This document shows positions 3,704-37,435 of a stretch of DNA of 64,000 nucleotides, piece by piece. Numbering within the stretch: the first letter of the stretch is position 1; each line of letters begins with the position of its first letter. Under the pieces are notes generated by a model, which made no database searches, had not been told where the DNA came from, and saw only the letters and a program-made list of their open reading frames with translations. Source of the stretch: Dehalococcoidia bacterium (lineage in GTDB: Bacteria; Chloroflexota; Dehalococcoidia; SZUA-161; SpSt-899); NCBI GenBank assembly GCA_028711995.1, contig JAQTRE010000002.1:1704-65703 (forward strand). Reading direction: 5' to 3'. Made by a program: the position numbers and the translations under genes.

Positions 3704-3715
3704 GGTTCTTCCTCG

Positions 3716-4891
3716 CTATTTCTGATCCAGCGATGCTAACAAAAGCGAGACGCCTGTTTGGGCATCCAGCGCATAGAGATCATCATGCCGATTGAGATAA
3801 TAGACGGTATTGCCCTCGACCCACGGGTCGGCGTATATCTTTCCCAGATTCTGAGGCAGCCACTTCTCCTTGCCTGTTTCAAGGTCGATTCCATAGACAA
3901 AACCCTGATCAGACTTGCAGGCTACCAGTAGCAAATTATGTTCAGGAACAACGACTGTGGCTGACCTGATCGGTCCTGCAGTTGATACCGGTGGGCTCCA
4001 TCTGGATTTACCCGTAGCGGCATCGATGGCATAGACGTTTTTATCCAGCGAGCCAATATAGATCGTGCCGTTGTGGTATGCAGCTTTGCTCCAGAACCAG
4101 TCATTTGCCTTGAAAGGTTCATCCCACTTTTGATCGCCCGTTTCGGCATCAAGGGCATAGAATTTACCCTCGAAGGTGCCAACGTAGATGGTGCCATCGA
4201 CAATCAAGGGTTCCGCTGCAACTGGTGCGTCGAATCCCTTTTCCCAGAAGAGCTTGCCCGAGGCCAGAGTGACGGCATAAAGCTTGTGCCCGAGGCTGCC
4301 GAAATAGACTTTGTCGCCCGCAATAGCCGGGCTCGACCATATTTTACCGCTGGCTTTGAAGGGTTTAGCCCAGAGAAGGGTGCCATCCGAGGTATTGATG
4401 GCATACAGCTTGTTGTTGGACGCCACGACGAGCGTGGTCCCGGAAAGCACAGGGCTGGCGACAATGGGACCTTTTGTCTCTACAGGCCGCCACATCTCCA
4501 TGCCGGTTATTGCATCTACAGCGTAAATTTTCCCGTCATACGCAGCAATGTAGGCAATTCCGTCCGAGACAACGGGTGCACCGTAGTTGACCAGGTCCGA
4601 AGAGGTGGTCGATTCACATCCGAAGAAATTTGTTTGTTTTTCTCCGATTCTGGGGGTCAGATTGACGGGAACCTTGCCTGGATTTGACAGGTCTATGGCC
4701 AAGAACATGCCGTTCTTCTGCGAAGTGGCATAGAGGGTATTGTCGGATACTACTGGGCCAGCCCATCCGTCAGGGGTAGATATGCGCCCCACACATCCTA
4801 CAAGGAACAAGCTACAGAGGAGGAGGATGAACAGGAGCTTCGCGACTGGTTTAATTTGTGAAATTGGCATCGGTCTATATAAAAATTGCAT
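3716..4891 (-). CDS. PQQ-repeat beta-propeller lipoprotein, BamB-like (391 aa)
   Basis: Signal peptide with a lipobox (LFLVGCVG). Repeated YA.D..TG...W / G.VY.G blades are typical of PQQ-like/BamB beta-propellers. It is inserted between yidD and yidC. Confidence 0.7.
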   Translation of the reverse strand: MQFLYRPMPISQIKPVAKLLFILLLCSLFLVGCVGRISTPDGWAGPVVSDNTLYATSQKNGMFLAIDLSNPGKVPVNLTPRIGEKQTNFFGCESTTSSDLVNYGAPVVSDGIAYIAAYDGKIYAVDAITGMEMWRPVETKGPIVASPVLSGTTLVVASNNKLYAINTSDGTLLWAKPFKASGKIWSSPAIAGDKVYFGSLGHKLYAVTLASGKLFWEKGFDAPVAAEPLIVDGTIYVGTFEGKFYALDAETGDQKWDEPFKANDWFWSKAAYHNGTIYIGSLDKNVYAIDAATGKSRWSPPVSTAGPIRSATVVVPEHNLLLVACKSDQGFVYGIDLETGKEKWLPQNLGKIYADPWVEGNTVYYLNRHDDLYALDAQTGVSLLLASLDQK

Positions 4892-4902
4892 AAATTAAAA
4901 AC

Positions 4903-5112
4903 TTAAGGCACCGGGTCTACTCCGCCCTTGGCAAAGGGATTACATCGGACAATGCGCTTGGCGGTCAGCCACCCGCCTTTCAAAAACCCATATCGGCTGA
5001 TCGCTTCATACCCGTACTCCGAGCATGTTGGCTGATAGCGGCAGGCAGGTGGCAATACAGGGGAAATTGCTTTCTTATAGAAGCTGATCAAGGCCAGGGC
5101 AATCTTCTTCAT
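4903..5112 (-). CDS. yidD: Membrane protein insertion efficiency factor YidD
   Basis: 69 aa, ...[26 protein letters not shown]... is the YidD signature, and it lies directly after rnpA. Confidence 0.9.
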
Positions 5113-5460
5113 CTAGTTTCTCACCAGTAGATCGGCTCGATTCATTAGCCCGATCAAGGCTGCCTCTATATCATCATAGCGCGCCCCGGCAGCTCGATTT
5201 CTAGCGATGATCACGATGTCCCAGCCCGGTTGAATCGGATTCAGCCTCACCGCCTCACGCAAGAGCCGTTTTACCCTGTTTCGTAAGACGGCCTTTTTCC
5301 CTACTTTTTTGCTGACAACAAAGCAAAACCGACTGACCTCCAAGCCGTTTGGCATGGCTCTCAGGACCATAAAGTCATTAGCCGAAGCCTTCCCGCACTT
5401 GAAGACTGCATCGATTTGCGAACCCCTGTTAAGCCGTTCCCCTCTTCGCATCTGTGCCAA
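5113..5460 (-). CDS. rnpA: Ribonuclease P protein component
   Basis: 115 aa basic protein (…KKVGKKAVLRNRVKRLLREA…) in the RnpA family, immediately downstream of rpmH. Confidence 0.9.
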   Translation of the reverse strand: MAQMRRGERLNRGSQIDAVFKCGKASANDFMVLRAMPNGLEVSRFCFVVSKKVGKKAVLRNRVKRLLREAVRLNPIQPGWDIVIIARNRAAGARYDDIEAALIGLMNRADLLVRN

Positions 5461-5480
5461 GCGATGTATTCTTGCACAGT

Positions 5481-5618
5481 CTATACAGTCAATTTATGAC
5501 GACCTGCCAGTCGCCTTCGGCTCAAAACTGCTCGCCCGTCCTTTGTGCTCATCCTGTGCAAAAAACCGTGCTTGCGTTTCCTGGGAATTTTCTTTGGTTG
5601 ATAAGTTCTTTTTGGCAT
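5481..5618 (-). CDS. rpmH: 50S ribosomal protein L34 (45 aa). Absent from the ORF track because it is under the size cutoff.
   Basis: Hand translation of the reverse complement gives [45 protein letters not shown] followed by a stop. This is the canonical L34 sequence, in the canonical position ahead of rnpA. Confidence 0.9.
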
Positions 5619-5644
5619 TTCTCTTGTCCTTAAATACGTAGCGT

Positions 5645-5674
5645 ATTATACCCTTATATGAGTTCTCTTGGCAA
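5645..5674 (-). promoter_or_regulatory. Candidate sigma-70 promoter for the rpmH-rnpA-yidD-yidC-jag operon
   Basis: On the minus strand: TTGCCA (-35), 18 nt, TATAAT (-10; the plus strand reads attata at 5645-5650). The -35 lies in the loop of an 8-bp hairpin (gagttctc/gagaactc, 5660-5687) that may also terminate gyrB. Confidence 0.45.
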
Positions 5675-5703
5675 CCAATGAGAACTCAGTTCTTCATCAG
5701 TCT

Positions 5704-7695
<1,992 letters not shown>

Positions 7696-8137
7696 TTACA
7701 GTTCTACCCTGCGCGTATTGATTATTACCGAAACCATCACCTGCAATCCGATTTCCTGGTGAACGTTGCCGTAATCATTGTAGTATGAATGACTCCCATG
7801 AGTCAATTGGATACCGATATTATGTCATTTCCTCGATGGCTTTGTTCGGAACTATTTTTCAAAGTGTTCTAGTGGACTGACTCAAGCCCGTTTTCCCCCA
7901 CTTTTTTGGGGAATTCTACAAGGGCATATTGCGTTAAGCCCCTATAGATATATCGCGTACAGTCGGGATCAGGAATGTATCACCGCTCTCTCGAAAGCCT
8001 CCGTTGGGATTGACACCGATGATGTTACATGTCGCCGGTTTTGCATGAGGAATAGAGGCCGGGAAGTCAATTGAAAGTCTGCCGGAATCGGACGTTCATG
8101 CCATTTCAATCAAAAGGGTATATCCCTTAGGATACCA

Positions 8138-8440
8138 TCAGTGTCTGATTTCGAAATTGCTGAAACTCTTGGTGTACGCTTCCCACTTGATGTCTATTTC
8201 CTCTACCCTCGCTCCGGATGGCCCAGCCTTGAGACGAGTTGCGAGCTCTTCCAGCTTTGCTCTCTCTCCCTCAGCAACCACCTGAACCGATCTTTCTACG
8301 AGAAGGTTTCTCACGTATCCAGTGAGCCCCAGGCGTCTCGCTTGCTCTTCGGCGAAAGCGCGGAAGTATACTCCCTGCACTCGGCCGTGCACTATGGCTG
8401 ATAGGCAGGCGAGTTCAGTCAGGCTATGCCCAGTTACCAT
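8138..8440 (-). CDS. acyP: Acylphosphatase
   Basis: VHGRVQGVYFRAF…GLTGYVRN…VVAEGE match the acylphosphatase signatures 1 and 2. Confidence 0.8.
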   Translation of the reverse strand: MVTGHSLTELACLSAIVHGRVQGVYFRAFAEEQARRLGLTGYVRNLLVERSVQVVAEGERAKLEELATRLKAGPSGARVEEIDIKWEAYTKSFSNFEIRH

Positions 8441-8466
8441 GGGGATTCTACGGTTCTCCCCACCTA

Positions 8467-8631
8467 CTATCCCTCTTGCTCAGACTCAGTCTTCCTAGGT
8501 GGTCTTTGTTTCTTGATCACTTCCACCGACGGTGGAGGTGGCAGGATGCTGCTGACACTCTTGATTTTCTTGGTGTCCTTCTTGGGCTTCTTTGTTTCTT
8601 TATGCGGGTAGTCTCCCTTTTTTGCCGCCAT
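8467..8631 (-). CDS. Small lysine-rich hypothetical protein (54 aa). Speculative.
   Basis: Hand translation gives MAAKKGDYPHKETKKPKKDTKKIKSVSSILPPPPSVEVIKKQRPPRKTESEQEG. It is an intact ORF but has no recognisable family. Confidence 0.25.
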   Translation of the reverse strand: MAAKKGDYPHKETKKPKKDTKKIKSVSSILPPPPSVEVIKKQRPPRKTESEQEG

Positions 8632-8769
8632 GTTTGCACCTCATGTGTCTTATTGTGATTGGACGGAAGAAATAAGTGATTAGAGTGTAGCAAAGCAAGG
8701 TGACAGTGTAAAGAAGATCGGGATACGTCTGCGCTATTGGTTCCTCCGATGAAACGTCACACGGGCGAA

Positions 8770-10461
8770 CTAAATCCCGGAGGCTTTCTCCGGCTCCGAC
8801 CGTGGAGATGTGGACTCTACACTGATATTCCGCTTCCCCTGCAGGGGGATTTCTTTGAGGAAGACTGTGGCTGCCAATGCAATCAGCGCCACGATTAATC
8901 CTATAAGAAATACCTCGGTGATGGCCGAGGAAAGCGCGTGCCGTAGCGCGTCCACGAGTTGTTGGAACAGCCCTTCGCCTTGGGGGCCCAGCTGGTTGAA
9001 CTGGGAATGAAGTTGCTCCTGAGCTTCAGGACTGACAAGCGCTTGTGGGTTGTGTGCCATTGATGAAAGTTGCCCCTGCTGTAGGGCATCCTTGACACTT
9101 GGTGGGACTGCGTGCGTCAGGTCAGAGGAGAATCGGTTGGTCATCACCGAGCCAAAGACAGCCAGCCCCAGAGTGCCGCCAATAGAGCGAATGAACTGAA
9201 TGGACGATGTGGCCACGCCCATCAGGCGGTAGGGGACCGCGTTCTGAACAGCAATAGTAAAGACGGGCATTGTTATGCCAAGCCCGAATCCCATAAGCGC
9301 AATGTTAAAGATCGTCTGCCCGTGTGTGGTACCTACCGTCATCCGGGAAAGCAAGCCTGTACCAAGCGCCATGACCGTTAACCCCACCAGCGCTTGAGTC
9401 CGATAGTGGCCTCCCATGCGGGAAAGTGCCTGTCCGGAAAGAATACTGCCAGCTACCATTCCCAGCATCATAGGGGTGAGGAAACTACCGCTGCTGGTCG
9501 CCGATGAACCCAGCACCCCCTGGAAAAAGAGCGGGATGAACACAATACCGCCGAACATGCCGAATCCGGTGAGAAAAGTGGCGATCATCGAAATGCCAAT
9601 AATACGGCCCCGAAAGATACTAAGGGGGATAAGGGGCTCAACGGCACGCGACTCCACCCAAAAGAAAAGGCCGGCTGAAATTACTCCAAAGGCTAACGTC
9701 CCGATGATCTGTGCTGAAATCCATGCATATTCCGACCCACCCCAGGAGAGACCCAGTAGAATGGGTACCACCGCCAGCACCAGCGTAATCACGCCCAGAT
9801 AATCAAGGCGCTGTCCGGTGGCTGCCGGTTGCACCTTGGGAAAGAACAGGATAAAGAAAATGATCGCCGGGATACCGACCGGGATGTTGATGAAGAAAAT
9901 CCAGTGCCATGAAAGGTTATCGGTAACAAAGCCTCCGATCATGGGGCCGATCACAGCTGATAGGCCAAAGACCGCAGTGATAATCCCGGAATACTTACCC
10001 CGCTCTGCAGGCGGAAAGAGATCTCCGATAATGATGAAGGAATTGGCCATCATCACTCCAGCACCGATGCCCTGGAAGGCCCGGAAAAGAATGAGCTGGG
10101 TCATCGTCTGGCTGAGCCCTGAGAGAATAGATCCCAGCAGAAAGATGGCAATCCCGACGATGCAAATCCATTTTCTCCCGTAAATATCCGTCAGCTTGCC
10201 TATAATGGGTACTACCGTGGTGGAGGTTACCAAATAGGCTGTGGTCACCCAGGTATAATGGGCGAATCCGCCGAGGTCGGCGATGATACGTGGCATGGCA
10301 GTGCCCACTACTGTCGAGTCCATAGACGACAAAAACATGGCCAGCATCACTGCGGCCATGGTGAGCACTATCTGGCGTCTGGGTAAAGAGTGGAATCCTG
10401 CGGTGTCGCCCCCGTCCCAGCCGTGATCCTTTGTTTCTGTCTGATCCGTTTTCGGCATCAT
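8770..10461 (-). CDS. MFS transporter, DHA2 (EmrB/QacA-like, 14-TMS) drug:H+ antiporter family. The likely start is MMPKTDQ; the track ORF extends to 10530.
   Basis: Hydrophobic multi-TM protein with the MFS motifs (…[11 protein letters not shown]…) and about 14 predicted helices. Confidence 0.8.
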
Positions 10462-10596
10462 ATGCTTCTCTGAAGATGTCTTGATGCATTCTCCGGTGCA
10501 GAACGAGGAATATCCGCGCCGTTGTGTCAATACCCCATCTCAGATGCTGGTTTTCCGCATCAACGCTCCCCTATCTGAGGACTCTTCACATTGGTT

Positions 10597-10619
10597 GATA
10601 GTTTATCGAATAAACTATC
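10597..10619. promoter_or_regulatory. Perfect 9-bp inverted repeat GATAGTTTA-n5-TAAACTATC (candidate operator) in the divergent MFS/pfkA intergenic region
   Basis: The palindrome was read directly from the sequence. It lies about 100-150 bp upstream of the MFS efflux gene start. Confidence 0.35.
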
Positions 10620-10767
10620 TCGTGTCAAGCATTCTAAGACCACCTCAAAACAGGGATGAGTGAGCCCGCACATTTTTTGTCTTCAGGCTTGCGCAGTTAC
10701 CGTGGAGGAGGTTATGAGGAAAATCGGAGCATTTCAAAAACTTCAGCGGCTTCTTGACATGAAGTGC

Positions 10768-10796
10768 AGACAAAGCTAGAATTGCACCAAAGTGCA
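10768..10796 (+). promoter_or_regulatory. Candidate sigma-70 promoter for pfkA (TTGACA-17-TAGAAT)
   Basis: ttgacatgaagtgcagacaaagctagaat was read about 110 bp upstream of the pfkA start. A short tgcac-n4-gtgca palindrome follows it. Confidence 0.4.
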
Positions 10797-10906
10797 CAAC
10801 TGCTACAGTCGAATGTTGGTCTCAGGCAGTGGCTCTCTACTACAAGATCGGCTGGTTCGAGGAGGGTAGGGAGTGGGTAGGTTATGGGATTCCAGGAGGT
10901 TTTGAG

Positions 10907-11878
10907 ATGAAAAGAATTGCAGTGTTAACCAGCGGAGGGGATGCTCCCGGCATGAATGCTGCTATCAGATCTGTGGCACGCACCGCCGCGGATAAGGGTT
11001 GGGGCGTATTCGGCGTTCGAAATGGATATGCCGGCCTTATCAATGATACGATGGTGCCGCTCGGGGCTCGGGATGTGGGCGGTATTATGCAAATGGGCGG
11101 CACTATGTTACGCAGCAGCCGCTGTCCTGAATTCAGGACAGAGGAAGGACGAATCAAAGCGCTAAGGACGCTTCATGAACATGGCATCGAGGCGCTGGTT
11201 GTCATCGGAGGAAATGGATCTCAGACCGGGGCCCACGCTCTATCCAAGATGAAGTTCCCAGTCATCGGCATTGCCTCCACTATCGATAATGACCTCTACG
11301 GATCAGAGGTTACCATCGGGGTAGACACAGCCCTGAATATAGCCCTAGAATCCATCGACAGGCTGAAAGTCACTGCCTCATCCCATCAACGAGCCATCCT
11401 TGTAGAAGTTATGGGGCGCGATTGTGGATACCTGGCTTTGATGTCCGGGCTTGCCGGTGGAGCTGAAACGGTGGTTATCCCGGAGATGGAAACAGATCCT
11501 GAAATAGTGGCCAGTCAAATCATCAGCGCCTATGGACGAGGCAAACCACACGCCCTGGTAGTGGTGGCTGAAGGTGCCAAATACAATGGCATCAAGCTCA
11601 TGGAGCACTTCCAGAAACACCAGCATCGGTTGGGGTTCGATTTGCGGCTGACCACCCTGGGACACGTGCAGCGCGGCGGTGTACCCAGCGCCTTTGATCG
11701 ATTGCTGGCTACCCGATTGGGCGTAGCAGCAACGGACCACCTGGCCAAAGGTGAGCACGGAGTGTTGATGGGGCTGATAAAGGACGAAATTGTGCCTACA
11801 CCGCTGGAAGAAGTAGTCGCCACCAAGAAGCCACTGGATTTGCACTTGCTGGAATTGGTCAGAACCCTGGCACAGTAG
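10907..11878 (+). CDS. pfkA: ATP-dependent 6-phosphofructokinase. The start is taken at MKRIAVLTSGGD; the track ORF begins at 10829.
   Basis: MKRIAVLTSGGDAPGMNAAIRSV… and …GGDGS… are classic PFK-A motifs, and an RBS (ggaggt) precedes 10907. Confidence 0.9.
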   Translation: MKRIAVLTSGGDAPGMNAAIRSVARTAADKGWGVFGVRNGYAGLINDTMVPLGARDVGGIMQMGGTMLRSSRCPEFRTEEGRIKALRTLHEHGIEALVVIGGNGSQTGAHALSKMKFPVIGIASTIDNDLYGSEVTIGVDTALNIALESIDRLKVTASSHQRAILVEVMGRDCGYLALMSGLAGGAETVVIPEMETDPEIVASQIISAYGRGKPHALVVVAEGAKYNGIKLMEHFQKHQHRLGFDLRLTTLGHVQRGGVPSAFDRLLATRLGVAATDHLAKGEHGVLMGLIKDEIVPTPLEEVVATKKPLDLHLLELVRTLAQ

Positions 11879-17347: not shown

Positions 17348-17920
17348 ATGTTAACAACAGCGCAGAACGCCCCCAACGGAAAATACGCCATTGACGATCC
17401 CGAGATCTTCGCGGGAGATATGGAGATATACATTGCTCCGCCTTTTGACAATGCTCATGTAATAAACATCATGAGACAGATGAAGAAGCATAAATGCAGA
17501 TTTCAATACTCCAGCGGCTCGCACCGGGATGGTTGCTTGATCGCCGTTTATCTCGATGAGCCACAAGCCATGGTCAGTATTCTAGCCGATACCCCTGGCA
17601 TCAACGATGTCCGGATAACTCCGGTACTGGAATCTAAATTCGAACAGTCTCACGGGCAATCCCGGCAGTTGCTTATGTCTGGAAGAATGAATGTTCATCG
17701 GATAACGGTCACTGTGGAACCCCGCAAGGTAAGGGCCGTGGAAGGCGGGCGAGAAGGCATCGCCGACGGCCAAAATGTGAAGAGCCCCGCTCACAAGGCC
17801 AACGAGACAGGCATCTTTAATCCGGAAAGATCAACGGATAGTTACTCTCGACGTGTCACCTTTGATGCCCGAGGAGGAGCGTTCGGGGCAAGGGCGAATG
17901 CGATACCACGCATCGTTTAG
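17348..17920 (+). CDS. Hypothetical protein (190 aa) directly upstream of pilT
   Basis: A good RBS (aaggaga) precedes the ATG at 17348. There is no recognisable domain, and the C-terminal half is Arg/Gly-rich and of low complexity. Confidence 0.4.
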   Translation: MLTTAQNAPNGKYAIDDPEIFAGDMEIYIAPPFDNAHVINIMRQMKKHKCRFQYSSGSHRDGCLIAVYLDEPQAMVSILADTPGINDVRITPVLESKFEQSHGQSRQLLMSGRMNVHRITVTVEPRKVRAVEGGREGIADGQNVKSPAHKANETGIFNPERSTDSYSRRVTFDARGGAFGARANAIPRIV

Positions 17921-17967
17921 TGAAGCAGTGTTTGGCTTTTTCAATTCTGTTTCTCAGGGAGGGAAAA

Positions 17968-19059
17968 ATGGAAATCAATGAACTACTGCGTTTGGCGGAT
18001 CAGAAGAATGCCTCAGACCTTCACCTCATGGTCGGAGTCCGTCCGGCGCTGAGGGTCGACGGACAGTTGATAAATATTCAATGTGAGCCGATTACTCCTG
18101 CTGAGCTGATACAGGCTTTCAATTCGGTGACAGATGAGAATCAGCAGAGCACATTCTCTCGCGATTTGGAGCTGGATTTTGCCTATACTGTCCCACATGG
18201 ATCTCGCTTCCGGGCTAATGCTTGCCGGCAGAAGGGAACCATCAGCCTCGTCTTCCGACACCTAGAGTCACCCCCAATCAACATCGAGGCTATCGGTTTG
18301 CCCCTGGTCTGCAGGGACCTGGCCCTCAAACCGAATGGATTGGTGTTGGTAACCGGACCCTCGGGATGCGGCAAATCGACCACGTTAGCAGCAATGATAC
18401 AGCACTTGAATCAAACCAGGGAACGACGAGTTATCACCATTGAGGACCCCATCGAGTATGTTTACGCCAGCGATCGGTGCATGATCTCGCAGCGAGAGGT
18501 GGGATCTGACACCCATTCGTTCGCTCAGGCGCTGAAGCATGTGCTTCGGCAGGACCCGGAAGTCATTCTGGTTGGGGAAATGCGAGATGTTGATACGGCG
18601 ATGATGGTGCTGACGGCCGCGGAGACCGGCCAATTGGTGTTGTCCACGGGGCATGCTTCCAATGCTCCCAGTTCAATTGACAGGATAATTGATCTGTTTC
18701 CCCCGAATCAGCAGATCTTCGCCCAGGCAAGACTGGCCGAGGTGCTTCAAGGAGTATTATCCCAGAGATTGCTGGCTCGTGTGGATGGATCAGGACGAGT
18801 TCCCGCAGTGGAGGTCATGCTGGGAAACCCGGCGGTGAAGAGCCTCATTCGGGAAGGCAAGATACACCAACTAGCCAACGTTATCCGCACCGGTCAGCAA
18901 TTGGGTATGCGGTCTATGGATGAATCTCTGATACACCTTTACGATGCAGGGCTGATAAGCAGAGAGGCGGTATTGACGTACTGTGTGGATTACGGCGAAA
19001 CAGTAAGAATCGTTGGTGAGCCATTGACATCTGGTGTTACCGGGCGATTGCAGCTTTAA
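17968..19059 (+). CDS. pilT: Type IV pilus retraction ATPase PilT. The start is taken at MEINELLRL; the track ORF begins at 17920.
   Basis: Walker A GPTGSGKST-type (here GPSGCGKST), Asp box, Walker B, His box (LVLSTGHA) and the PilT-specific region are all present. An RBS (agggagg) precedes 17968. Confidence 0.85.
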   Translation: MEINELLRLADQKNASDLHLMVGVRPALRVDGQLINIQCEPITPAELIQAFNSVTDENQQSTFSRDLELDFAYTVPHGSRFRANACRQKGTISLVFRHLESPPINIEAIGLPLVCRDLALKPNGLVLVTGPSGCGKSTTLAAMIQHLNQTRERRVITIEDPIEYVYASDRCMISQREVGSDTHSFAQALKHVLRQDPEVILVGEMRDVDTAMMVLTAAETGQLVLSTGHASNAPSSIDRIIDLFPPNQQIFAQARLAEVLQGVLSQRLLARVDGSGRVPAVEVMLGNPAVKSLIREGKIHQLANVIRTGQQLGMRSMDESLIHLYDAGLISREAVLTYCVDYGETVRIVGEPLTSGVTGRLQL

Positions 19060-19086: not shown

Positions 19087-22000
19087 TTAGGCCATCGGGC
19101 TTTGCTGTTCTCCCATAACCCTGAAAAACACGCCAATGATGGCGGGATCAAACTGGCTTCCGCTGCATCTTTGCAATTCGGCCATCGCTTCTGTGTGCGA
19201 CATCACATCAGCATAGGATCGGGCAGAGGTCAGGGTATCGTAAGTATCAGCTACGGAGATGATCCTGGCACGGATTGGAATCTCTATGCTCTTCAACCGG
19301 CCCGGATATCCGCTGCCATCATACCATTCATGATGGTGGCGGATATCCGGCACAATGTCCGCCAGGTCTTTGACGTGTTCCACAATCTTCGCTCCCTCGG
19401 CAGAGTGCCTTGTGAGGAGCGCCCACTCTTCTTCCGTAGGTTTTCCCGGTTTGCTCAGGATCGCATCAGAGACGCCGAATTTACCGATATCGTGCAGGAT
19501 GGCGGCAGAGTGCAACTTTACCAGGTCCATCTGAGTCAACCCCATCGCCTTGCCAATCCTTTCACACAGACCTGCTACCCTTGTAGCATGACCATACATT
19601 TCTTTGTCCCTGGCATCTACTGCGGCGGCCAGAGCATAAATCTGGTCCAGCGTCGCCAAGCCCAAGACTCCCGAAGCTGCCAGCTCGTCCAGATCGGACA
19701 CCCGCGTGGTGGTAGCCCCCCCGCGTCGCTTTGACTGATAAAGAGCGATATCAACCAGATTCATCAGGCTGTCTATGGTATCTCCATCATCGGGGAAGTC
19801 AACTATCCCTGCACTGATCTGCAAAAGCATCTCTGAGGAAGGAAAACTGGACTTGACTCTCTCCTCCCATTTTTGTCTGATGCGCCTAGCAATCTTGTCT
19901 GCTTTTTTAACATGAGTTGAGCGCACCAGCAGGATGAACTCGTCGCCGCCGTAGCGAAAAACCATGTCATTGTTCTTAAGAGAAGTTTCCAGCAGTCGGG
20001 CGAACTCTTGAAGGACCTTATCGCCATTTGTGTGCCCGTAAGTGTCATTGTACAGCTTGAATCGATCGAGGTCGAGCATTACCAGCGAGAATGAACTGCC
20101 GTCTGCAAGGGCTCGGTTGATCTCCGTTTCGACCACATCGTAGAAACGGCGGCGATTCGGAACGCCGGTCAACTCATCGGTTACACTCAGGCGACGTAAT
20201 TCTTCCTCGGCCTGTCTACGCTCCGTGACGTCACGAATGACAGCAAGGTACGTCACTGCCTTTCCCTCGCTGAAAATTGGAGAATGGGTCACCTCGCCAA
20301 ATCGTACGGCTCCGTCTTTGGAGATGAATTTATAGGTTGGATTGGGAAGCGTCTCACCTGCGAAGATGTGATCTAGATTGTGATGCAGTTCCTGCAATGA
20401 ATCCTCTGCGATGACGCCTATCTCCAGCCATCTCTTTCCCATCAGTTCCGCGAGGACATATCCGCCAAGCCTCTCAGCCGAGGGCGAAACGTCAATAAGC
20501 CTGAGTTCCTGGTCAAACTCAGCGATGACATCGGATACATTCTCGAAATGGAGCCGGTATCGCTCCTCACTATGACGCAGCGCTTCTTCTGCAACCAGCC
20601 GGGCAATACCTTCCCCCACATGTCCTGTGATCTGCTCGAGTGCAATACGAGCGTGGACGGAAAATCTTTCTTCAGTGTGAGAAGTTACGTGGAGGCAGGC
20701 GACCAACCGGCCCTCATGAACAATCGGAAGTATTGCAATGGCCCGCAGACCCTCCATCTGCTCTGCTTCTTTTGAAGGTATGTTAACCTTCGAGAACTCA
20801 GTATACAGTGGCACCGCGTTCATCACCAGACGGGTATTGGGGGAATCGGGGCCATAGTATGAAACAGAATCAATGAAATCGGCTGATAATCCGTGGTGAC
20901 ATACCAGCCTTATTCCCCCTGTATCTTCATCAACGAGGTAGATGCCTCCCGAGTCCATTCCGGAGGCGGCGATGGCCGCCTCAAGGCACAGGGCGGCGCC
21001 CTTATCGAGTTCGTCGGTAGCAGATAAGGATTGAGCCAGATTCTGCTGAATGGCGGACTGTTTCTCTGCCCGTTTTCGGTCGGTGATGTCCGAGGTCAAA
21101 CCATAGAAATACCGTTTGCCGTCTTGCTCATAGGAATTAACGGCTCTGGTATATAACCATAGCCATTCCCCGTCCTTTCGCCTGAACCTGTGCTCGATAG
21201 CAAAGTAAATCCCTTCCTCATCGAGGGCCCTCAAAGCAATTTTCACATTGTTGAGGTCATCAGGGTGAACGTTTCCCAGCCAACCACGGATTCCTCCCTG
21301 ACGCAGTTCTTCCGGCGCACATCCCATGATTGCCTGCACATTGGGGCTAACGAAAGCGATCCCCTTTCCCTGCTCGACTATCCACACGGTATCCGGAATG
21401 TTGTTCACCACAGTACGGTATTTCTCTTCACTCTCGCGGAGCGCCCTTTCCGCTTGCCTTCGCTCCGTTACATCTCGCACCACAGAGGTATACGCTGTAA
21501 TCTTTCCTTCCACAATAAGGGGGGTATTGGTTACCTCGCCAAGTTTAATCGTTCCGTTCTTGCAGATGAACCTGTAGGTACGAGGCGGCATCGCTTCGCC
21601 GGGAAGGAAGTGGTTCAGGTTGAAAACGATCTCCTGCGCTGATTTCTCTGAGATGATGCCAACATCGACCGCCTTCCTGCCGATCAACTCGGATGGTGTA
21701 TATCCCAGCATCGTTTCGATTGACGGTGAGACATCGAGAATGCGAATCTCTGTGTCAAAGCTGACGATGATGTCGGACGCATTCTGAAAGTGGAGCCGAT
21801 ATCGCTCTTCGCTCGCGGCGAGCGCTTTCCAGGCTCGCGTCTTCTCCAAAGCATTGCCTATGATGTCGGCGGATAGCTGGAGCAGGGCTCTGTCATCCTC
21901 TTTCCACTTTCCGGCTGTGGAAACATTGTCAAAACCGATGAGCCCTGCCCACCGGTTTGCCATAAACAGAGGAACAATGATGAGTGATTTGATTTCCTGG

Positions 22001-23517
22001 CTCTCCAGAAGCAATCGGAGATTTCTCTCCCGGGTATTCTCAAGGGAAAGCATGGAAACATCTGGAATGTGCATCCCCTCTCCGGAGCGCATCTTGTCCA
22101 CACCTTCGAATTTATTGCAGGGTATTCCTTGCAGATTACTTATCTGGGGAGATACTCCCTCGGCGCACCACTCGTGGGTGTTGTCGATGATATTGCTATC
22201 TTCTCGCAACAGAAACAGATAAGCTCGATGGGCTCCGCTCAGCACAGCCATATCCTGCAGTGCCTCTTTGATGGCGCTGTCAATATCGTCATTCCCCACA
22301 AATCGAGCAGAGATGATGGCTATGGTCTTCTCGAACTCCAGCCGGCGGTTTATATTCTCCTGTGCGCGCTTACGTTCGGCGATTTCCACAGTTAATTTGT
22401 CGCGCGAAACGGTTGTTGTCCTGAGTGTCTCAGCCATCCGGTCAAACGAACGGGAGAGATCGCCGAGTTCATCCCTGTCCTTCGCGTTCATCCGGTAATC
22501 CAGATTGCCCCGGCTGATCTCCTCTGCTCCCTGCGAAAGACGACGGACCGGTAAGGTAATAGTACGGCTGAAAAACAGGGCCAGGAATATCACCCCCAGC
22601 GCCATACCGGCACCGATGATCAAAATTATGTTCCGTAAATTGCGGACCGGTGTAAATGCTTCGGCTTGATCTACCTCTGTCTGAATGTATAACTTCCACT
22701 CCGGTATCCATTGACCGGCTCCAATGACCGGCACGCCCCGGTAGTTATGGTACAGGCCGTGGAAAGCAATGGGTCCGCCCGGATTGGGGGGCGCTTCCCT
22801 GTTCACGGCCAGAACGGCTTGGTCCTGAACATTTCCCTTACCAAATTCCGGGACGGTGACAAACTGATAGGATTCATCAATCAGGCATGTGTTCTGGGTT
22901 TGCTTTGAATCGGCCCCTCTGGCCAGAATGTCGGAGGACAGCTCCTGTATATCGACGCGACCTGCAAGCACAGCGACAAGGTTGCCTTGATTGTCTTTGA
23001 CGGGCATTCCGATAACAATGGCGGAGGTTGACGACGGAGGAGACTGGCAGCAGACAGTCTGGACATACATCCCTTGCTTACCTTCCTCAAAAAAAGGCTC
23101 CCCCACCCCGTATTGTCCCTCTCTGGCCTCATTCGAGGAGACAAACACCAGTCCATCGCTGGCTCTGAGGAGAAACATTTCGTCCAAACCGACCCCTTCA
23201 ATTGCCGCCGCGAAGAGACGATCAACGATACCCTGACGGGCTTCCCGGTATGCTGGGTCCGTCCGGTCAAGTGATCCCATCGCTTTCAATTTCTCCAACA
23301 TGTAGGAATGGGCAGACAGTATATCGACCGCAGTCTCATTAGAATTCATCCAGCCTGTGAACTGTGTAGCCTTGTAGGCGTTGATTGAGATGAGGTTTTC
23401 CAGCGTGTCATCTTCGATGGTTTTCCGGCCATGGTCATAAGCCACGTAACCAACAATGATCACCGGGATGAGAGAAAGAAGGAGGAAAATCAGGATTAAC
23501 TTGGTGGCTAGTTTCAT
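19087..23517 (-). CDS. Multidomain c-di-GMP signalling protein (1476 aa): TM, periplasmic dCache-like sensor, TM, HAMP, GAF, PAS x2, GAF, PAS, GGDEF, HD-GYP
   Basis: An N-terminal TM helix, an extracytoplasmic region of about 260 aa and a second TM helix are followed by …RYGGDEFILL… (GGDEF) and a C-terminal …ILHDIGK…HHEWYDGSGYP… (HD-GYP). Several PAS and GAF signatures are visible between them. Confidence 0.85.
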   Translation of the reverse strand: MKLATKLILIFLLLSLIPVIIVGYVAYDHGRKTIEDDTLENLISINAYKATQFTGWMNSNETAVDILSAHSYMLEKLKAMGSLDRTDPAYREARQGIVDRLFAAAIEGVGLDEMFLLRASDGLVFVSSNEAREGQYGVGEPFFEEGKQGMYVQTVCCQSPPSSTSAIVIGMPVKDNQGNLVAVLAGRVDIQELSSDILARGADSKQTQNTCLIDESYQFVTVPEFGKGNVQDQAVLAVNREAPPNPGGPIAFHGLYHNYRGVPVIGAGQWIPEWKLYIQTEVDQAEAFTPVRNLRNIILIIGAGMALGVIFLALFFSRTITLPVRRLSQGAEEISRGNLDYRMNAKDRDELGDLSRSFDRMAETLRTTTVSRDKLTVEIAERKRAQENINRRLEFEKTIAIISARFVGNDDIDSAIKEALQDMAVLSGAHRAYLFLLREDSNIIDNTHEWCAEGVSPQISNLQGIPCNKFEGVDKMRSGEGMHIPDVSMLSLENTRERNLRLLLESQEIKSLIIVPLFMANRWAGLIGFDNVSTAGKWKEDDRALLQLSADIIGNALEKTRAWKALAASEERYRLHFQNASDIIVSFDTEIRILDVSPSIETMLGYTPSELIGRKAVDVGIISEKSAQEIVFNLNHFLPGEAMPPRTYRFICKNGTIKLGEVTNTPLIVEGKITAYTSVVRDVTERRQAERALRESEEKYRTVVNNIPDTVWIVEQGKGIAFVSPNVQAIMGCAPEELRQGGIRGWLGNVHPDDLNNVKIALRALDEEGIYFAIEHRFRRKDGEWLWLYTRAVNSYEQDGKRYFYGLTSDITDRKRAEKQSAIQQNLAQSLSATDELDKGAALCLEAAIAASGMDSGGIYLVDEDTGGIRLVCHHGLSADFIDSVSYYGPDSPNTRLVMNAVPLYTEFSKVNIPSKEAEQMEGLRAIAILPIVHEGRLVACLHVTSHTEERFSVHARIALEQITGHVGEGIARLVAEEALRHSEERYRLHFENVSDVIAEFDQELRLIDVSPSAERLGGYVLAELMGKRWLEIGVIAEDSLQELHHNLDHIFAGETLPNPTYKFISKDGAVRFGEVTHSPIFSEGKAVTYLAVIRDVTERRQAEEELRRLSVTDELTGVPNRRRFYDVVETEINRALADGSSFSLVMLDLDRFKLYNDTYGHTNGDKVLQEFARLLETSLKNNDMVFRYGGDEFILLVRSTHVKKADKIARRIRQKWEERVKSSFPSSEMLLQISAGIVDFPDDGDTIDSLMNLVDIALYQSKRRGGATTTRVSDLDELAASGVLGLATLDQIYALAAAVDARDKEMYGHATRVAGLCERIGKAMGLTQMDLVKLHSAAILHDIGKFGVSDAILSKPGKPTEEEWALLTRHSAEGAKIVEHVKDLADIVPDIRHHHEWYDGSGYPGRLKSIEIPIRARIISVADTYDTLTSARSYADVMSHTEAMAELQRCSGSQFDPAIIGVFFRVMGEQQSPMA

Positions 23518-24125
23518 CGTTTCCTCGGGTCGTAATCGGGAAAGGGTGAAATATCAGACATGCACTGTATACTCGACAATTTAGCCTTTTGATCTCCTGT
23601 TGTCAAGAGAGTCATTTTTTCCTTAATCCTTGGAGTATCGACCCTCTGCGGATCAGGTTGACGCAAAACAGAGAAATGCCTGGAAGATGATACTGCCTGG
23701 CTAAATTATAACCCTCCAACGCTTGTCTCGAAAATGAGTCGGCAGTAACAAATATCAAACCGTGTAAGTTTCCTGTTGATTATGTTTAACCATAAGGAAA
23801 ATTTGGGGGTAACCATCACAGAAAAATCAGTGTTCTCACCGTTTCGTATAGACGGGGTCTTGGTGTATTCTGCGTGTAACGTGTAAATGGGCCAACTCCG
23901 TCGAAGCTACAGCACCCTCGTGGCGGGTAGCGATGATGCTGTTGATTTTGCGAAGGCATCCTGAGCCGTGTATTTAGTAGGAACCTTCCGGGGTTAGCCC
24001 CATATATGGAGAATTCATGTGGCAACGGTTGAAAGCAGCAAGCTTTTTCCCCGAATCCGAGCCATGGTTTCCTGGAAAGTTGCTGCAAGAAGAGAACTGA
24101 ACATGACAGAAAGGAATTAGGCCAG

Positions 24126-24413
24126 ATGCATCTAGCGATTCAATTACTGATTCAATTAACGATACTTATAGTTGCCATTGTCATAGCCAGTTTGATTTTG
24201 CGCTGGATGACGAGCAATCCCGAAAAGCTCAAAGCCATATGGAGGCGCACTAAGAGATTTTGGGTAACACCCTTGATATACCTAAGGGCATTTCGAGCCT
24301 ATGTTAACTGGAAAAGGGTGGGGATGGGTTTCAGCCTTCGGGATTGTATGTGCCAGGAATGGGAGAAATATGATAAGGAACATTATCCCGATCAACCCTA
24401 CTATCGACTGTGA
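24126..24413 (+). CDS. Small hypothetical membrane protein (95 aa) in the 1-kb divergent promoter region. Speculative.
   Basis: One N-terminal TM helix and a weak RBS (aggaa), with no family match. Confidence 0.25.
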   Translation: MHLAIQLLIQLTILIVAIVIASLILRWMTSNPEKLKAIWRRTKRFWVTPLIYLRAFRAYVNWKRVGMGFSLRDCMCQEWEKYDKEHYPDQPYYRL

Positions 24414-24544
24414 AGAATAGTGAACTTGTAGCTGTTGTGTGATGGGAATAGAAGCATCAATGGAAACAAAGTTGGTACAAAAACGAAGGGCCGCTTCTGA
24501 GCAGTTTGGGTGATCTTCCATGAAGTTACCATAGGAGGAATTAA

Positions 24545-29363: not shown

Positions 29364-29543
29364 AACGGCTACGCAGAATTCTAGAGGCCATGCATTGAGA
29401 GAAAGGGGCCTATCTGGTTATCGATAACCATCGATAAGGAAGGAACCCTGAGAATTGCCGAAAAACCGGTCACTGGATTATTGATCGGCTTGAAGCAATG
29501 GTGAATCGTAATCCCTCACTATCGCTTTGTGAGGAGGCTGGGA

Positions 29544-29933
29544 ATGAATCGGAAAGTATTGGTAGTTGACGATGACCCAACTATGCTCAAGACTGTGAAG
29601 GCAATCCTGAGCAGTAATGGCTTTGCGGTGACCACTGCCGCGGGGGGGCAACAGTGTCTTGCGGAGCTGAAAATGGGGTTCAAAGGGGTAATCCTTATGG
29701 ATGTAATGATGCCTGATATGGATGGGTGGGCCACTATCAGAGAGATCGTCAACCGTGGACTTCTGGAGGGAAATGTGATCACCATGTTGACTGCAAAACA
29801 TACTCCAGATACAGAGATGGAAGAGCTTGCCGAGTGCGTTCTGAACTACATCAGAAAGCCGTTTGAACTCCGCGAACTCAATTCAGTTGTGGAGGAATGC
29901 AGTTCTTATTTGGAATCACTGGAGAGTATTTAA
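29544..29933 (+). CDS. Stand-alone response-regulator receiver domain. It looks like the REC half of a split CheB. The start is at MNRKVLVVDDDP; the track ORF begins at 29529.
   Basis: The REC acid pocket DDD is present, along with the phospho-acceptor Asp in the LMDVMMP context and the K near the C-terminus. Its C-terminus overlaps the following methylesterase ORF in another frame. Confidence 0.75.
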   Translation: MNRKVLVVDDDPTMLKTVKAILSSNGFAVTTAAGGQQCLAELKMGFKGVILMDVMMPDMDGWATIREIVNRGLLEGNVITMLTAKHTPDTEMEELAECVLNYIRKPFELRELNSVVEECSSYLESLESI

Positions 29934-29965
29934 CCGGCCGCCTGCTGGCTGATCTAGGAGCAGAA

Positions 29966-30565
29966 GTGGAGTTTTCAAAAAACATCATCATAATCGGTTC
30001 TTCTAGCGGGGGACCTCTGACTTTGAGGAGGGTGTTGGCCAAGTTGCCGGTGCTCGATGCTTCCATCCTCATTGTTCAGCACATGCCCAAGTTTATCAAT
30101 GACACCATCAGAGAGTCTCTGTCACGAATGACGGATATGCGTGTCAGATTAGCAGAGGACAGGGCCATGTTGGAAGACGGGAAAGTCTTTGTCGCTCCCA
30201 GCGAAGTGCATATGGAGATAGAGGATAACCGAAGGATCAGGCTGCGTCAAAGCGAAAGGGTCAACTTTGTGTGCCCGTCGATAGACGTTACGATGCAGTC
30301 TATCAGACACGAACCTGGGTTGTCCACTGTCGGCGTCATTCTAACCGGCATAGGTCGAGATGGAGCACAGGGAATCAGCCATATCAAATGTTTGGGAGGC
30401 ACAACCATCGCACAGGATAGCAGGACATGCGTCGTATACGGTATGCCCAAGGCAGCCGTTGAGACCGGTAACGTGGACTTTGTGCTGACTCCTGAAGAGA
30501 TACGGGAGAAACTTATTGAGCTGGTAAAAGGATCAAGGGGGAAAAATGGTAACGTTAGCAGCTGA
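29966..30565 (+). CDS. CheB-type methylesterase catalytic domain only. A GTG start with an RBS is proposed; the track ORF begins at 29897 and overlaps the REC gene.
   Basis: IIIIGSSSGGPLTLRRVLAKLP…ILIVQHMP… is the CheB_methylest signature with the catalytic Ser-His-Asp. It is in a different frame from the upstream REC ORF. Confidence 0.7.
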   Translation: MEFSKNIIIIGSSSGGPLTLRRVLAKLPVLDASILIVQHMPKFINDTIRESLSRMTDMRVRLAEDRAMLEDGKVFVAPSEVHMEIEDNRRIRLRQSERVNFVCPSIDVTMQSIRHEPGLSTVGVILTGIGRDGAQGISHIKCLGGTTIAQDSRTCVVYGMPKAAVETGNVDFVLTPEEIREKLIELVKGSRGKNGNVSS

Positions 30566-34391: not shown

Positions 34392-35471
34392 ATGAGCAAT
34401 AGCATTAGCGTGCTGATAGTGGATGATTCTGCCTTTGCCAGGTTTGCTATTTCCAAGCAGATTGGCGCTCATCCGGAGATGAAGGTCATAGGTACTGCTC
34501 GCGATGGGATTGATGCCCTGGAGAAAATCAAGCAATTGAAACCGGATGTGGTGACACTCGATGTGGAAATGCCGAAGATGGATGGCTTGGCGGTACTCAA
34601 ACATGTCATGTCAGAGTATCCCACACCGGTGATCATGCTCAGCAGTCTGACCAGTGAGGGTGCGGAGACAACACTGAAGGCGCTGGATATGGGAGCTGTT
34701 GATTTCTTCCTTAAGCCTTCCTCGGCGGCACCGGCAGGGCTATCGCCCGAAATGGTGAACGATTTGGTAACCAAAATAAGGATGGCTGCCAAAACCGATG
34801 TGTCACGCATGAAGACGATTGCCACCGTCCCGAGAAAAAGTCAGGCGATGGAGAAGAAAGCACGCAAACCTCGTGCCAGTATACAGAATAAAGTGATCGT
34901 TCTCGGGTGCTCAACCGGAGGCCCGCGAGCATTGCACAGGGTGATTCCTTCGCTGCCCGGAGATTTGCCAGCAGCCATGCTGGTAGTGCAACATATGCCG
35001 CCGGGATTCACCAAGTCATTGGCCAATAGGCTGAACGACTTGTCGGAGGTGGAAGTCCGAGAGGCTCAGGAGGGAGATGCCCTCAAGCCCGGTCTGGTAT
35101 TACTAGCTCCCGGCGGCAGCCATATGACGGTGAATGAAGGTGGCCGGGTGAGCCTCAATCAGGGCCCGATGGAGTGTGGGCTGCGGCCTGCAGCCAATGT
35201 GACCATGGAGTCGGTGGCTAAGGCTTATCAAAAGACTGCTCTCGGTGTAGTGCTCACCGGCATGGGAAATGATGGTACCAGGGGGGCGGGTCTCATTAAA
35301 AAGTTCGGCGGTGAAGTGGTGGTGGAGGACGAATCTACCTGTGTGGTCTACGGAATGCCCAAAAGCATTGTTGATGCCGGGTATGCCGACAGAGTTTTGC
35401 CATTATCGCAGATAGCAGGTGAGATCACCAAAAGATGCCATGTAAATCTCGAAATGGCCCTTGAGGTATGA
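34392..35471 (+). CDS. cheB: Protein-glutamate methylesterase CheB (intact REC + methylesterase, 359 aa)
   Basis: An N-terminal REC (LIVDDSAF…LDVEMPKMDG) is followed by a methylesterase domain (…VIVLGCSTGGPRAL…LVVQHMP…). Confidence 0.9.
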   Translation: MSNSISVLIVDDSAFARFAISKQIGAHPEMKVIGTARDGIDALEKIKQLKPDVVTLDVEMPKMDGLAVLKHVMSEYPTPVIMLSSLTSEGAETTLKALDMGAVDFFLKPSSAAPAGLSPEMVNDLVTKIRMAAKTDVSRMKTIATVPRKSQAMEKKARKPRASIQNKVIVLGCSTGGPRALHRVIPSLPGDLPAAMLVVQHMPPGFTKSLANRLNDLSEVEVREAQEGDALKPGLVLLAPGGSHMTVNEGGRVSLNQGPMECGLRPAANVTMESVAKAYQKTALGVVLTGMGNDGTRGAGLIKKFGGEVVVEDESTCVVYGMPKSIVDAGYADRVLPLSQIAGEITKRCHVNLEMALEV

Positions 35472-36334: not shown

Positions 36335-37435
36335 ATGCGTCGCATATCGGTTAAATACGCTCAACCCGAAATGGAGCTGGCAAAGCCTCTTTTTGATAAA
36401 TGGGGCAATATGCTGTTACCCATTGGCGCCAAACTGACGGAACGACAGCTGCGGTTATTGCCGAACAAGGGTGTAAGGGAATTATCCATTGAAGACTCGC
36501 GAGTCGATGATGTGCTTTGGGACCCACTTATAAAGCCGGAGACGCAGCAAGAAGCAGTCAAGGCAATCAGCGATCTGTTGACCATAAACCAGAAGGGTGG
36601 AGGGATCAAAAGTCCCAAGGACCCGAGAATGGTCTCCGCTCGACTGAACATCGAGAAAATGAGCTATATGATCACGCAAGAGGTTTTGACATCAGTTATG
36701 GGGGAGCCGGATCTCTCTGGCTGTCAATCCATCGAAGATTATCATTGCATTCAACCTGTGCAATCTACCATCCTGGCAGTGATGCTGGCAAAGGAGGCCG
36801 GCTTCAACGAAGGGGATATGCTGAGCGTGGCCAAAGCCGCCATGCTGCAGAACATTGGTTATACCTTTCTGCCTCAGGAGATATTGAGAAAAGAAACGGA
36901 GCTATCACCAGAGGAGACTCTGGAATTTGAAAAACATCCCATATATGGTGCTGAAATCCTCCGTCAGACCGGCCAGACTTCTCCTCAGATCATCGAAGCA
37001 GTACTGCAACATGAGGAACGGTGGAACGGGAGTGGTTATCCTAACAAGATAAGGGGCTGGGATATATCCCCATTTGCCCAGATTATAGGGATTGCACATA
37101 CCTACTACGATCTTGTGTCGGCGAGACCATGGAGGGAGCCATTCAAGCAAATGGATGCGTTTGAGTACATCATGGCATACGGGGGAGAGCTTTTCGATCC
37201 GGAATGGGTGCAGGTCTTCTCGCGTCGCGTTCCCATCTACCCCAGCGGGGTGAAGGTGAAATTGAGCACAGGGGAGATCGGAATCATTTCTGATGCCAAC
37301 CTCGGACATATCGGCAGACCGATGGTGCGGATCATCTCTGATAGTAAAGGCAATGATGTCAGCCGCCCATACGATATGGACCTCTCGAAGCCAAGTTATC
37401 AGGATCGACTGGTTATAGAACTCTTAGAGATTTGA
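36335..37435 (+). CDS. DUF3391-like N-terminal domain + HD-GYP-like domain with a degenerate HD dyad (366 aa), paralog 1
   Basis: The N-terminus MRRISVKYAQPEMELAKPLFDKWGNMLLPIGAKLTERQL fits the DUF3391 pattern that commonly precedes HD-GYP domains. The core has …YHCIQPVQSTILAVMLAKEAG… and KAAMLQNIGY where active enzymes have AALLHDIGK. The GYP motif is retained (HEERWNGSGYP). A C-terminal extension of about 100 aa follows. Confidence 0.7.
   Translation: MRRISVKYAQPEMELAKPLFDKWGNMLLPIGAKLTERQLRLLPNKGVRELSIEDSRVDDVLWDPLIKPETQQEAVKAISDLLTINQKGGGIKSPKDPRMVSARLNIEKMSYMITQEVLTSVMGEPDLSGCQSIEDYHCIQPVQSTILAVMLAKEAGFNEGDMLSVAKAAMLQNIGYTFLPQEILRKETELSPEETLEFEKHPIYGAEILRQTGQTSPQIIEAVLQHEERWNGSGYPNKIRGWDISPFAQIIGIAHTYYDLVSARPWREPFKQMDAFEYIMAYGGELFDPEWVQVFSRRVPIYPSGVKVKLSTGEIGIISDANLGHIGRPMVRIISDSKGNDVSRPYDMDLSKPSYQDRLVIELLEI

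Follow-up and report, generated by a model that had tools for sequence, protein, structure and literature searches.

A predicted c-di-GMP turnover sensor with well-preserved GGDEF and HD-GYP domains in a Dehalococcoidia bacterium

The window analyzed here is a stretch of 64,000 nucleotides from a Dehalococcoidia bacterium (contig JAQTRE010000002.1), and all coordinates refer to it. On its minus strand it encodes a protein of 1476 amino acids that ends in a GGDEF domain followed by an HD-GYP domain, i.e., a diguanylate cyclase-type and a phosphodiesterase-type module for cyclic di-GMP (c-di-GMP). This protein is very probably a sensor of c-di-GMP turnover and, by analogy with bifunctional GGDEF-EAL enzymes, we favor on balance that it works as a signal-switched bifunctional cyclase/phosphodiesterase. 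The order of its parts is transmembrane helix, dCache, transmembrane helix, HAMP, GAF, PAS, PAS, GAF, PAS, GGDEF, and HD-GYP, just as a first-pass annotation of the sequence had read it; a hidden Markov model (HMM) scan recovers this order, with the dCache assignment based on a predicted fold. The same annotation had described a single polypeptide with an intact RYGGDEF motif and an intact HD...HHEWYDGSGYP motif, and all of this holds: the open reading frame (ORF) has no interruption, both domains score far above their Pfam cut-offs, RYGGDEF is present together with the other catalytic residues, and the HD-GYP motif is accompanied by all eight metal ligands. The gene and its output part are laid out as follows:

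19087-23517, minus strand: complete ORF of 1476 amino acids, MDD5092890.1 (ORF and GenBank match)
19717-20184, minus strand: GGDEF domain, residues 1112-1267, with the A-site RYGGDEF at residues 1188-1194 (Pfam; alignments)
19627-19716, minus strand: linker from GGDEF to HD-GYP, residues 1268-1297, with low model confidence at residues 1279-1288 (predicted model)
19138-19626, minus strand: HD-GYP domain, residues 1298-1460, with HHEWYDGSGYP at residues 1395-1405 (Pfam; PmGH alignment)

The ORF comprises 1476 codons with an ATG start and zero internal stops, and a GAGGA Shine-Dalgarno sequence lies 5 to 9 nt 5' of the ATG. About 20 homologues align with its N-terminus, MKLATKLILIFLLL, from Met1 onwards, so that the start codon is sound. 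An identical protein has already been deposited from a 90-kb contig with locus tags PHV74_... as MDD5092890.1, "MAG: PAS domain S-box protein [Dehalococcoidia bacterium]" (MAG, metagenome-assembled genome).

The GGDEF domain matches PF00990 with 153.9 bits (cut-off 23.8) and TIGR00254 with 150.9 bits (cut-off 37.4), and a DELTGxxNRR motif with its preceding helix marks its N-terminal start. As a yardstick for individual residues we used 144 tandem relatives, defined as those of 158 examined relatives that align across both domains in one stretch. The 158 consist of 11 proteins from a search with the full-length protein and 147 new ones from the best 150 of 24,952 proteins that a HMMER scan of 1.84 billion cluster representatives (50% identity) found at E ≤1e-30 with the C-terminal 379 residues as the query. 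The motif DLDRFKLYNDTYGHTNGD holds the metal-binding aspartates D1149 and D1151 as well as K1154, N1157, and the base-reading D1166; it is followed by the A-site R1188-Y-GGDEF (GGDEF at 1190-1194) and, further on, by K1263. Each of these is the dominant residue at its position in the 144 relatives, and D1149, N1157, D1166, and K1263 match in 140 to 144 of them. We take the equivalents in PleD to be D327 (metal), N335 and D344 (guanine), and K442 (phosphate), and presume that the D344-equivalent, Asp1166 here, is also the base-reading position of Hypr-type GGDEF domains. Compared to PleD/WspR-type cyclases (PDB 1W25, 2WB4, and 3BRE), the domain shows 33-37% identity with PleD and about 34% with WspR at a root-mean-square deviation of about 3 Å, with the A-site, metal, guanine, and lysine residues conserved. 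Those cyclases, however, take their input from receiver domains and carry an RxxD motif, whereas the protein described here has a dCache-HAMP-GAF/PAS chain in front, KxxD in place of RxxD, and a phosphodiesterase fused behind the cyclase.

This KxxD/RxxD motif is the primary inhibitory site (I-site), which precedes the A-site by five residues. Cyclases typically have RxxD at this position, although catalysis does not depend on it. A complete RxxD is found in 132 of the 144 tandem relatives, but our protein reads K1181-N-N-D1184 instead, and its first position is Arg in 133 relatives and Lys in none of the 144. The Arg of the secondary I-site is kept (R1212). Because the primary I-site Arg is replaced by Lys1181, the cyclase is probably inhibited less strongly by its product, to judge from the sequence.

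The HD-GYP domain matches PF13487 (HD_5) with 127.3 bits (cut-off 27.2) over positions 5-170 of the 170 in the model, and phmmer aligns it with PmGH, the GAF-HD-GYP c-di-GMP phosphodiesterase of Persephonella marina (PDB 4MCW), at an E-value of 2e-29 over 181 residues. In this alignment E1306, H1310, H1342, D1343, H1371, H1395, H1396, and D1424 pair with the eight ligands of the trinuclear site of PmGH, which we take to be E185, H189, H221, D222, H250, H276, H277, and D305; this assumed numbering agrees with a six-residue tag offset of the deposited chain, and E1306 falls on the Glu of the PmGH segment DPETQNH. Seven of the eight ligands, H1310 to D1424, are conserved in 134 to 144 of the 144 relatives, while the position of E1306, the third-metal ligand that marks the trinuclear subtype, is occupied by Tyr in 90 of them, by His in 17, and by Glu in just 2. 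The two enzymes also have the HHExxDGxGYP motif in common and match in Foldseek with a probability of 1.0 (24-32% identity in structural alignments), yet PmGH lacks both a GGDEF domain and a membrane sensor and carries just one GAF-like domain at its N-terminus. When residues 1098-1476 are modeled with AlphaFold, the model reaches a mean confidence (pLDDT, predicted local distance difference test) of 85, and its halves separately match solved GGDEF and HD-GYP structures with a probability of 1.0; none of the best 50 Foldseek matches of this model is a PDB entry that spans both domains.

Tandems of this kind are widespread. At an identity of 50% they form at least 144 clusters, and across one genome per GTDB species 534 stretches encode relatives, mostly in Dehalococcoidia, other Chloroflexota, and Dormibacterota, and often several to a genome. 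The key residues are intact in the GGDEF domain of 128 and in the HD-GYP domain of 130 of the 144 relatives. Since 115 of them keep both sites, it appears from these sequences that both activities are kept together by selection in the tandem family. The spacing of the domains is also regular, and the distance from the GGDEF lysine to the first HD-GYP histidine is 46 residues in 54 of the 144 relatives and 47 here. The fusion of GGDEF and HD-GYP has been known since HD-GYP was first described in 1999, and the Chloroflexi are among the HD-GYP-rich phyla (bioRxiv 10.1101/2021.11.05.467447); reviews name such tandems in passing (PMC6205966, PMC4646962). Given that the pairing is common in its phylum, our protein is an ordinary, though well-preserved, example.

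What sets it apart is its composition. No full-length orthologue was found among 5.8 billion proteins, in the GTDB species genomes, or by an exact-sequence look-up of contigs, and the best non-self matches are confined either to the C-terminal 25% (about 53% identity) or to the N-terminal 375 residues (40-48% identity). The output pair is 50-55% identical to GAF-GGDEF-HD-GYP proteins of Dehalococcoidia, and the GAF/PAS middle is about 31% identical to proteins such as P0013 of our comparison set. By this pattern of sequence similarity the protein is a modular mosaic of the kind that ordinary domain shuffling produces. Its nearest kin at the C-terminus are tandems of Dehalococcoidia and other Chloroflexota (P0002-P0007, P0019, and the gene at 8123-11143 of locus L038), which align continuously over the last ca. 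370 residues at 50-55% identity and have the motifs and the inter-domain spacing in common with it. Unlike our protein, they carry a GAF domain directly before GGDEF, a canonical RxxD, and Tyr or His at the position of Glu1306, and none has its dCache-HAMP front end or its order of sensors. The Lys in the I-site, the Glu at the third-metal position, the dCache front end, and a duplicated PAS domain thus make it a slightly unusual member of a common kind.

The input half consists of a membrane-anchored sensor and five cytoplasmic modules:

23437-23505, minus strand: N-terminal transmembrane helix, about residues 5-27 (hydropathy; helix in the AlphaFold2 model)
22639-23436, minus strand: extracytoplasmic dCache sensor, residues 28-293 (sub-threshold Pfam dCache_1; predicted fold)
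22570-22638, minus strand: second transmembrane helix, about residues 294-316 (hydropathy)
22420-22575, minus strand: HAMP domain, residues 315-366 (PF00672, 58.6 bits, cut-off 25)
21847-22287, minus strand: GAF1, residues 411-557, with the conserved motif DNTHEWCAEGV and Cys451 (Pfam)
21463-21807, minus strand: PAS1, residues 571-685 (Pfam)
21106-21426, minus strand: PAS2, residues 698-804, of the PAS_3 type (Pfam)
20605-20997, minus strand: GAF2, residues 841-971 (Pfam)
20212-20547, minus strand: PAS3, residues 991-1102; behind it, a helical linker leads to the DELTG at the start of GGDEF (Pfam; predicted model)

Hydrophobic segments at residues 1-28 and 294-324 bracket the extracytoplasmic part. 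Its Pfam match to dCache_1 (residues 33-227) scores 31.7 bits and stays under the cut-off of 45, but an AlphaFold2 model of residues 1-375 that was built from 15 homologous N-termini (pLDDT 75) shows a long N-terminal helix, two beta-sheet modules, the second membrane helix, and a pair of helices resembling HAMP. In Foldseek, this model matches the dCache domains of Mlp24, PctA, Tlp1, DctB, and rpHK1S-Z16 with a probability of 1.0 and target TM-scores of 0.6-0.7. A dCache fold of the sensor is therefore supported at the level of the predicted model, while the threshold of the curated HMM is not reached. The first 375 residues are also 40-48% identical to the N-termini of sensor histidine kinases of Dehalococcoidia and other Chloroflexi (P0015, P0034, P0040, and others), which have this front end in common with our protein but feed it into HisKA/HATPase output instead of GGDEF-HD-GYP. 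Because of this identity, the ligand of these kinases and that of our protein are probably identical or related. As for its nature, Glu140 (in EPFF) presumably occupies the position of the carboxylate-binding Arg of amino-acid sensors such as PctA (RPWY), a mapping that, if we take it correctly, would argue against an amino-acid ligand for the dCache domain. Similar in principle are the dCache_1-HD-GYP one-component sensors catalogued by Galperin and Chou (bioRxiv 10.1101/2021.11.05.467447), in which an extracytoplasmic dCache domain likewise governs HD-GYP output though without a GGDEF domain or a long GAF/PAS chain. According to the same authors, none of the HD-GYP proteins with an extracytoplasmic dCache, PBPb, or CHASE2 sensor has been characterized experimentally (bioRxiv 10.1101/2021.11.05.467447).

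The matches of both GAF and all three PAS domains exceed their Pfam cut-offs. An ungapped alignment of 119 residues shows 53% identity between PAS1 and PAS3, which by this similarity are an internal duplication; duplication of a whole GAF-PAS module was considered and rejected, as GAF1 and GAF2 have no BLAST match to each other and only PAS1 and PAS3 are related. GAF1 contains the motif DNTHEWCAEGVSPQ (residues 438-451, ending in Cys451; 22165-22206, minus strand). The core of this motif, H[EL]WC, recurs in 76 of 120 matches of the full-length search, including methanogen kinases (P0038, P0088, and P0093), and may mark a cofactor-binding GAF subfamily; a search with GAF1 by itself gave four matches. 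A bilin sensor was rejected, with a weak match to a cyanobacteriochrome GAF domain (6BHN, E 5.5e-4) in which the canonical chromophore Cys-His pair is unaligned. GAF1 may conceivably be akin to covalent-heme GAF domains of the MsmS/RdmS type, such as that of MsmS from Methanosarcina.

In a signal-switched enzyme, extracytoplasmic input to dCache would pass through HAMP and the five cytoplasmic modules (GAF-PAS-PAS-GAF-PAS) to the output pair, in which a GGDEF cyclase would be followed after some 30 residues by an HD-GYP phosphodiesterase with an eight-ligand site of the trinuclear type. The protein would form a homodimer, and the helical linker between PAS3 and GGDEF would decide whether the two GGDEF domains meet productively and turn 2 GTP into c-di-GMP; otherwise, HD-GYP activity would dominate and degrade c-di-GMP to pGpG/GMP. 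The state of the sensors would thus set the balance of synthesis and breakdown, so that one protein could raise or lower c-di-GMP in response to cues from outside and inside the cell. It is tempting to speculate that the attached phosphodiesterase may have taken over self-limitation from the weakened I-site. The same logic of one sensor-controlled polypeptide with both sites conserved is known from bifunctional GGDEF-EAL enzymes such as CdgB of Azospirillum baldaniorum and MSDGC-1 of Mycobacterium smegmatis (PMC9683572, PMC2994820), but these degrade c-di-GMP via EAL, whereas our protein would do so via HD-GYP, a metal-dependent HD fold that is able to reach GMP.

Several observations weigh against this reading. 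Our search of the searchable literature found no biochemical study of any GGDEF-HD-GYP tandem, and the mutual orientation of the two domains is without confident prediction (predicted TM-score 0.51; pLDDT <50 at linker residues 1279-1288). Furthermore, the GGDEF domain ends in KRRGG, with Gly1267 where the second phosphate-binding Arg of KxxGR would be expected, at what we take to be the equivalent of PleD R446. This position varies among the 144 relatives (Gly in 73, Arg in 48, and Lys in 10), so that Gly1267 is not decisive against a cyclase; it is a trait of the clade, and its weight is uncertain. Finally, GGDEF-EAL hybrids that conserve both sites are usually dominated by one of the two activities (PMC12943098).

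Such dominance would fit a protein that in practice works solely as a phosphodiesterase, in which GGDEF would bind GTP or dimerize and regulate and thereby gate HD-GYP. We consider this unlikely, although HD-GYP is the terminal output and fully intact, and Gly1267 could lower the efficiency of a cyclase. Its model would be Caulobacter PdeA (CC3396), in which a GGDEF domain reportedly gates an EAL domain. Regulatory GGDEF domains, however, normally drift at GG[DE]EF, whereas our protein and 128 of the 144 relatives conserve all catalytic residues, and the RxxD kept in 132 of 144 makes sense only for a working cyclase.

The converse would be a cyclase in practice whose HD-GYP domain serves as a built-in product sink or as a c-di-GMP sensor in place of the weakened I-site, limiting output or removing pGpG without independently regulated activity. 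What speaks for it is that two positions of functional weight set our protein apart from its kin, with the Lys1181 that none of the 144 relatives has and the third-metal Glu1306 found in only 2 of them (Tyr in 90). Yet both substitutions may be neutral, R1212 and D1184 remain, and there is no sign of coupling between the two sites, so that we regard this alternative as quite improbable. Slightly less probable still is that the 80% of the family in which both sites are intact work as obligately coupled devices and that our protein is a derived form of such a device. It may then be a signal-gated flux from GTP via c-di-GMP to GMP or a pulse generator, and not an either/or switch; the fused phosphodiesterase of the trinuclear type, with its rare Glu1306, may have taken self-limitation from an I-site disabled by Lys1181, and an extracellular ligand may be in direct control via dCache, with a cofactor linked to the Cys of the HEWC-type GAF domain as a further layer. 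That the output pair handles 3'3'-cyclic GMP-AMP (cGAMP), as a Hypr-type GGDEF with a V-cGAP-like HD-GYP, is hardly credible: by sequence, the HD-GYP half indeed finds its best PDB match in the cGAMP phosphodiesterase V-cGAP3 of V. cholerae (5Z7C, E 1e-32), but the c-di-GMP enzyme PmGH matches nearly as well (E 2e-29), and we rejected a Hypr-type synthase on the base-reading residue, at which Ser replaces Asp in Hypr domains (PMC12943098) while our protein has Asp1166 and the relatives have Asp in 144 of 144 cases and never Ser.

The gene lies between a pilus gene and a chemotaxis (che) cluster, and the following neighbors bear on its role:

17920-19059, plus strand: type IVa pilus retraction ATPase of the PilT/PilU family, convergent (TIGR01420, 419.9 bits, cut-off 319)
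36335-37435, plus strand: degenerate HD-GYP, copy 1 (HD replaced by QN, more ligand losses, GYP kept)
37950-39056, plus strand: degenerate HD-GYP, copy 2 (HD replaced by QN, GYP kept)

As the first-pass annotation had it, the gene converges on pilT, with 27 nt between the two stop codons, and diverges from the che cluster, which starts at 24545 on the plus strand beyond 1027 nt. Its further proposal of a local c-di-GMP signaling hub, which also drew on the degenerate HD-GYP proteins 13 kb away, is based on proximity and has fared less well. For our gene to be a working part of such a hub of c-di-GMP, chemotaxis, and type IV pili, co-regulated with che from the intergenic region between them and acting on PilT-driven motility, seems doubtful. 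Besides the two flanking neighbors, the degenerate HD-GYP proteins in which the che cluster ends would suit the idea, as would five loci from Dehalococcoidales MAGs (L031, L033, L038, L039, and L073) that hold genes for a pilM/N fusion, pilT, and a prepilin peptidase (pilD) and, 5-7 kb downstream of this pil set, a different gene of ca. 1000 codons for a TM-GAF-GGDEF-HD-GYP protein (TM, transmembrane) together with a LuxR-type response regulator (in L038, the stretch from the pil genes to the GGDEF-HD-GYP gene is 633-11143). These loci hint weakly at a recurrent pilus link, but they are probably one orthologous arrangement that differs from the one here. The closest syntenic che clusters that we found in metagenomes (L080 and L083; Che proteins 55-65% identical, degenerate HD-GYP genes included) have no gene of the 1476-residue type, no GGDEF gene, and no pilT in the 10 kb upstream, and che genes lie near relatives of our protein in 0 of 79 loci. 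The protein also has no Pfam match to a receiver domain (Response_reg) and hence no receiver route for input from CheA, and the 1027-nt gap is without an Rfam riboswitch match and without promoter-like sites above chance.

The che cluster encodes, in order, two methyl-accepting chemotaxis proteins, CheW, a receiver ORF that overlaps an ORF for a CheB methylesterase without a receiver, CheA, CheC, CheD, CheY, CheB, CheR, a degenerate HD-GYP protein, a receiver, a second degenerate HD-GYP protein, and a coiled-coil protein. The receiver ORF (29529-29933, plus strand) overlaps the methylesterase ORF (29897-30565, plus strand) in another frame, and this pair may represent a second cheB that was split or frameshifted, in addition to the complete cheB at 34392-35471. 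The two degenerate HD-GYP proteins had been described as paralogs of the intact domain. Degenerate they are, with QN for HD, but recent paralogs they are not: at about 30% identity, they are by sequence distant members of the family. Kin that are 52-57% identical to them also end the che clusters of L080 (15834-16931) and L083 (17955-19052 and 19087-20181), with EN for HD in 2 of 3 copies and GYP in 2 of 3; in the remaining copy of each case, a simple motif search did not detect the motif. There is thus probably a conserved family of che-associated, non-catalytic HD-GYP proteins. The main practical use of our protein is to serve as the intact reference for those 13 kb away, and the contrast that the first-pass annotation had suggested as an internal control is indeed there.

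On the other side, a 190-aa ORF (17348-17920, plus strand; MDD5092888.1, hypothetical) without a Pfam or NCBIfam match ends where pilT starts, and the two are for this reason probably co-transcribed. Kinship of this ORF (hyp190) to its positional counterpart in L038 was rejected, since the two are unrelated.

The region between our gene and the che cluster has two features of its own:

23518-24544, no strand: divergent gap to the che cluster, 1027 nt (no Rfam match, no DnaA-box cluster)
23578-23606, minus strand: promoter-like TTGACA-17-TAAATT about 60 nt upstream of the ATG (site count in the region not above chance)

The gap is unusually long, and gene orientation and GC (guanine-cytosine) skew both switch there. 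It holds a 95-aa ORF with a hydrophobic N-terminus (24126-24413, plus strand), an automated gene call only, which lacks a Pfam match and is the sole member of its cluster at 90% identity. A riboswitch or other RNA was rejected, as there is no Rfam match even at E-values up to 1. A replication origin was likewise rejected, because there is no DnaA-box cluster despite the double switch and the proximity of gyrB, yidC, and jag; one-mismatch DnaA boxes number 16 in the whole window against 12 expected, only one of them near the gap. Elsewhere in the window, genes for jag/khpB, yidC, a PQQ-like beta-propeller protein, and gyrB lie at 2170-7611 on the minus strand. Such a set of genes is often found near the chromosomal origin region; no dnaA gene is present in the 64-kb window.

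As a genomic finding, the protein is expected, since its phylum abounds in this architecture and the gene has already been deposited. The second-messenger biology of Dehalococcoidia is, however, essentially unstudied, and we found no solved structure of a GGDEF-HD-GYP tandem, so that a well-preserved member with a full metal site is a reasonable target for study. If both domains work, it would be a compact case of a single polypeptide that raises or lowers c-di-GMP in response to an outside ligand and internal cues.

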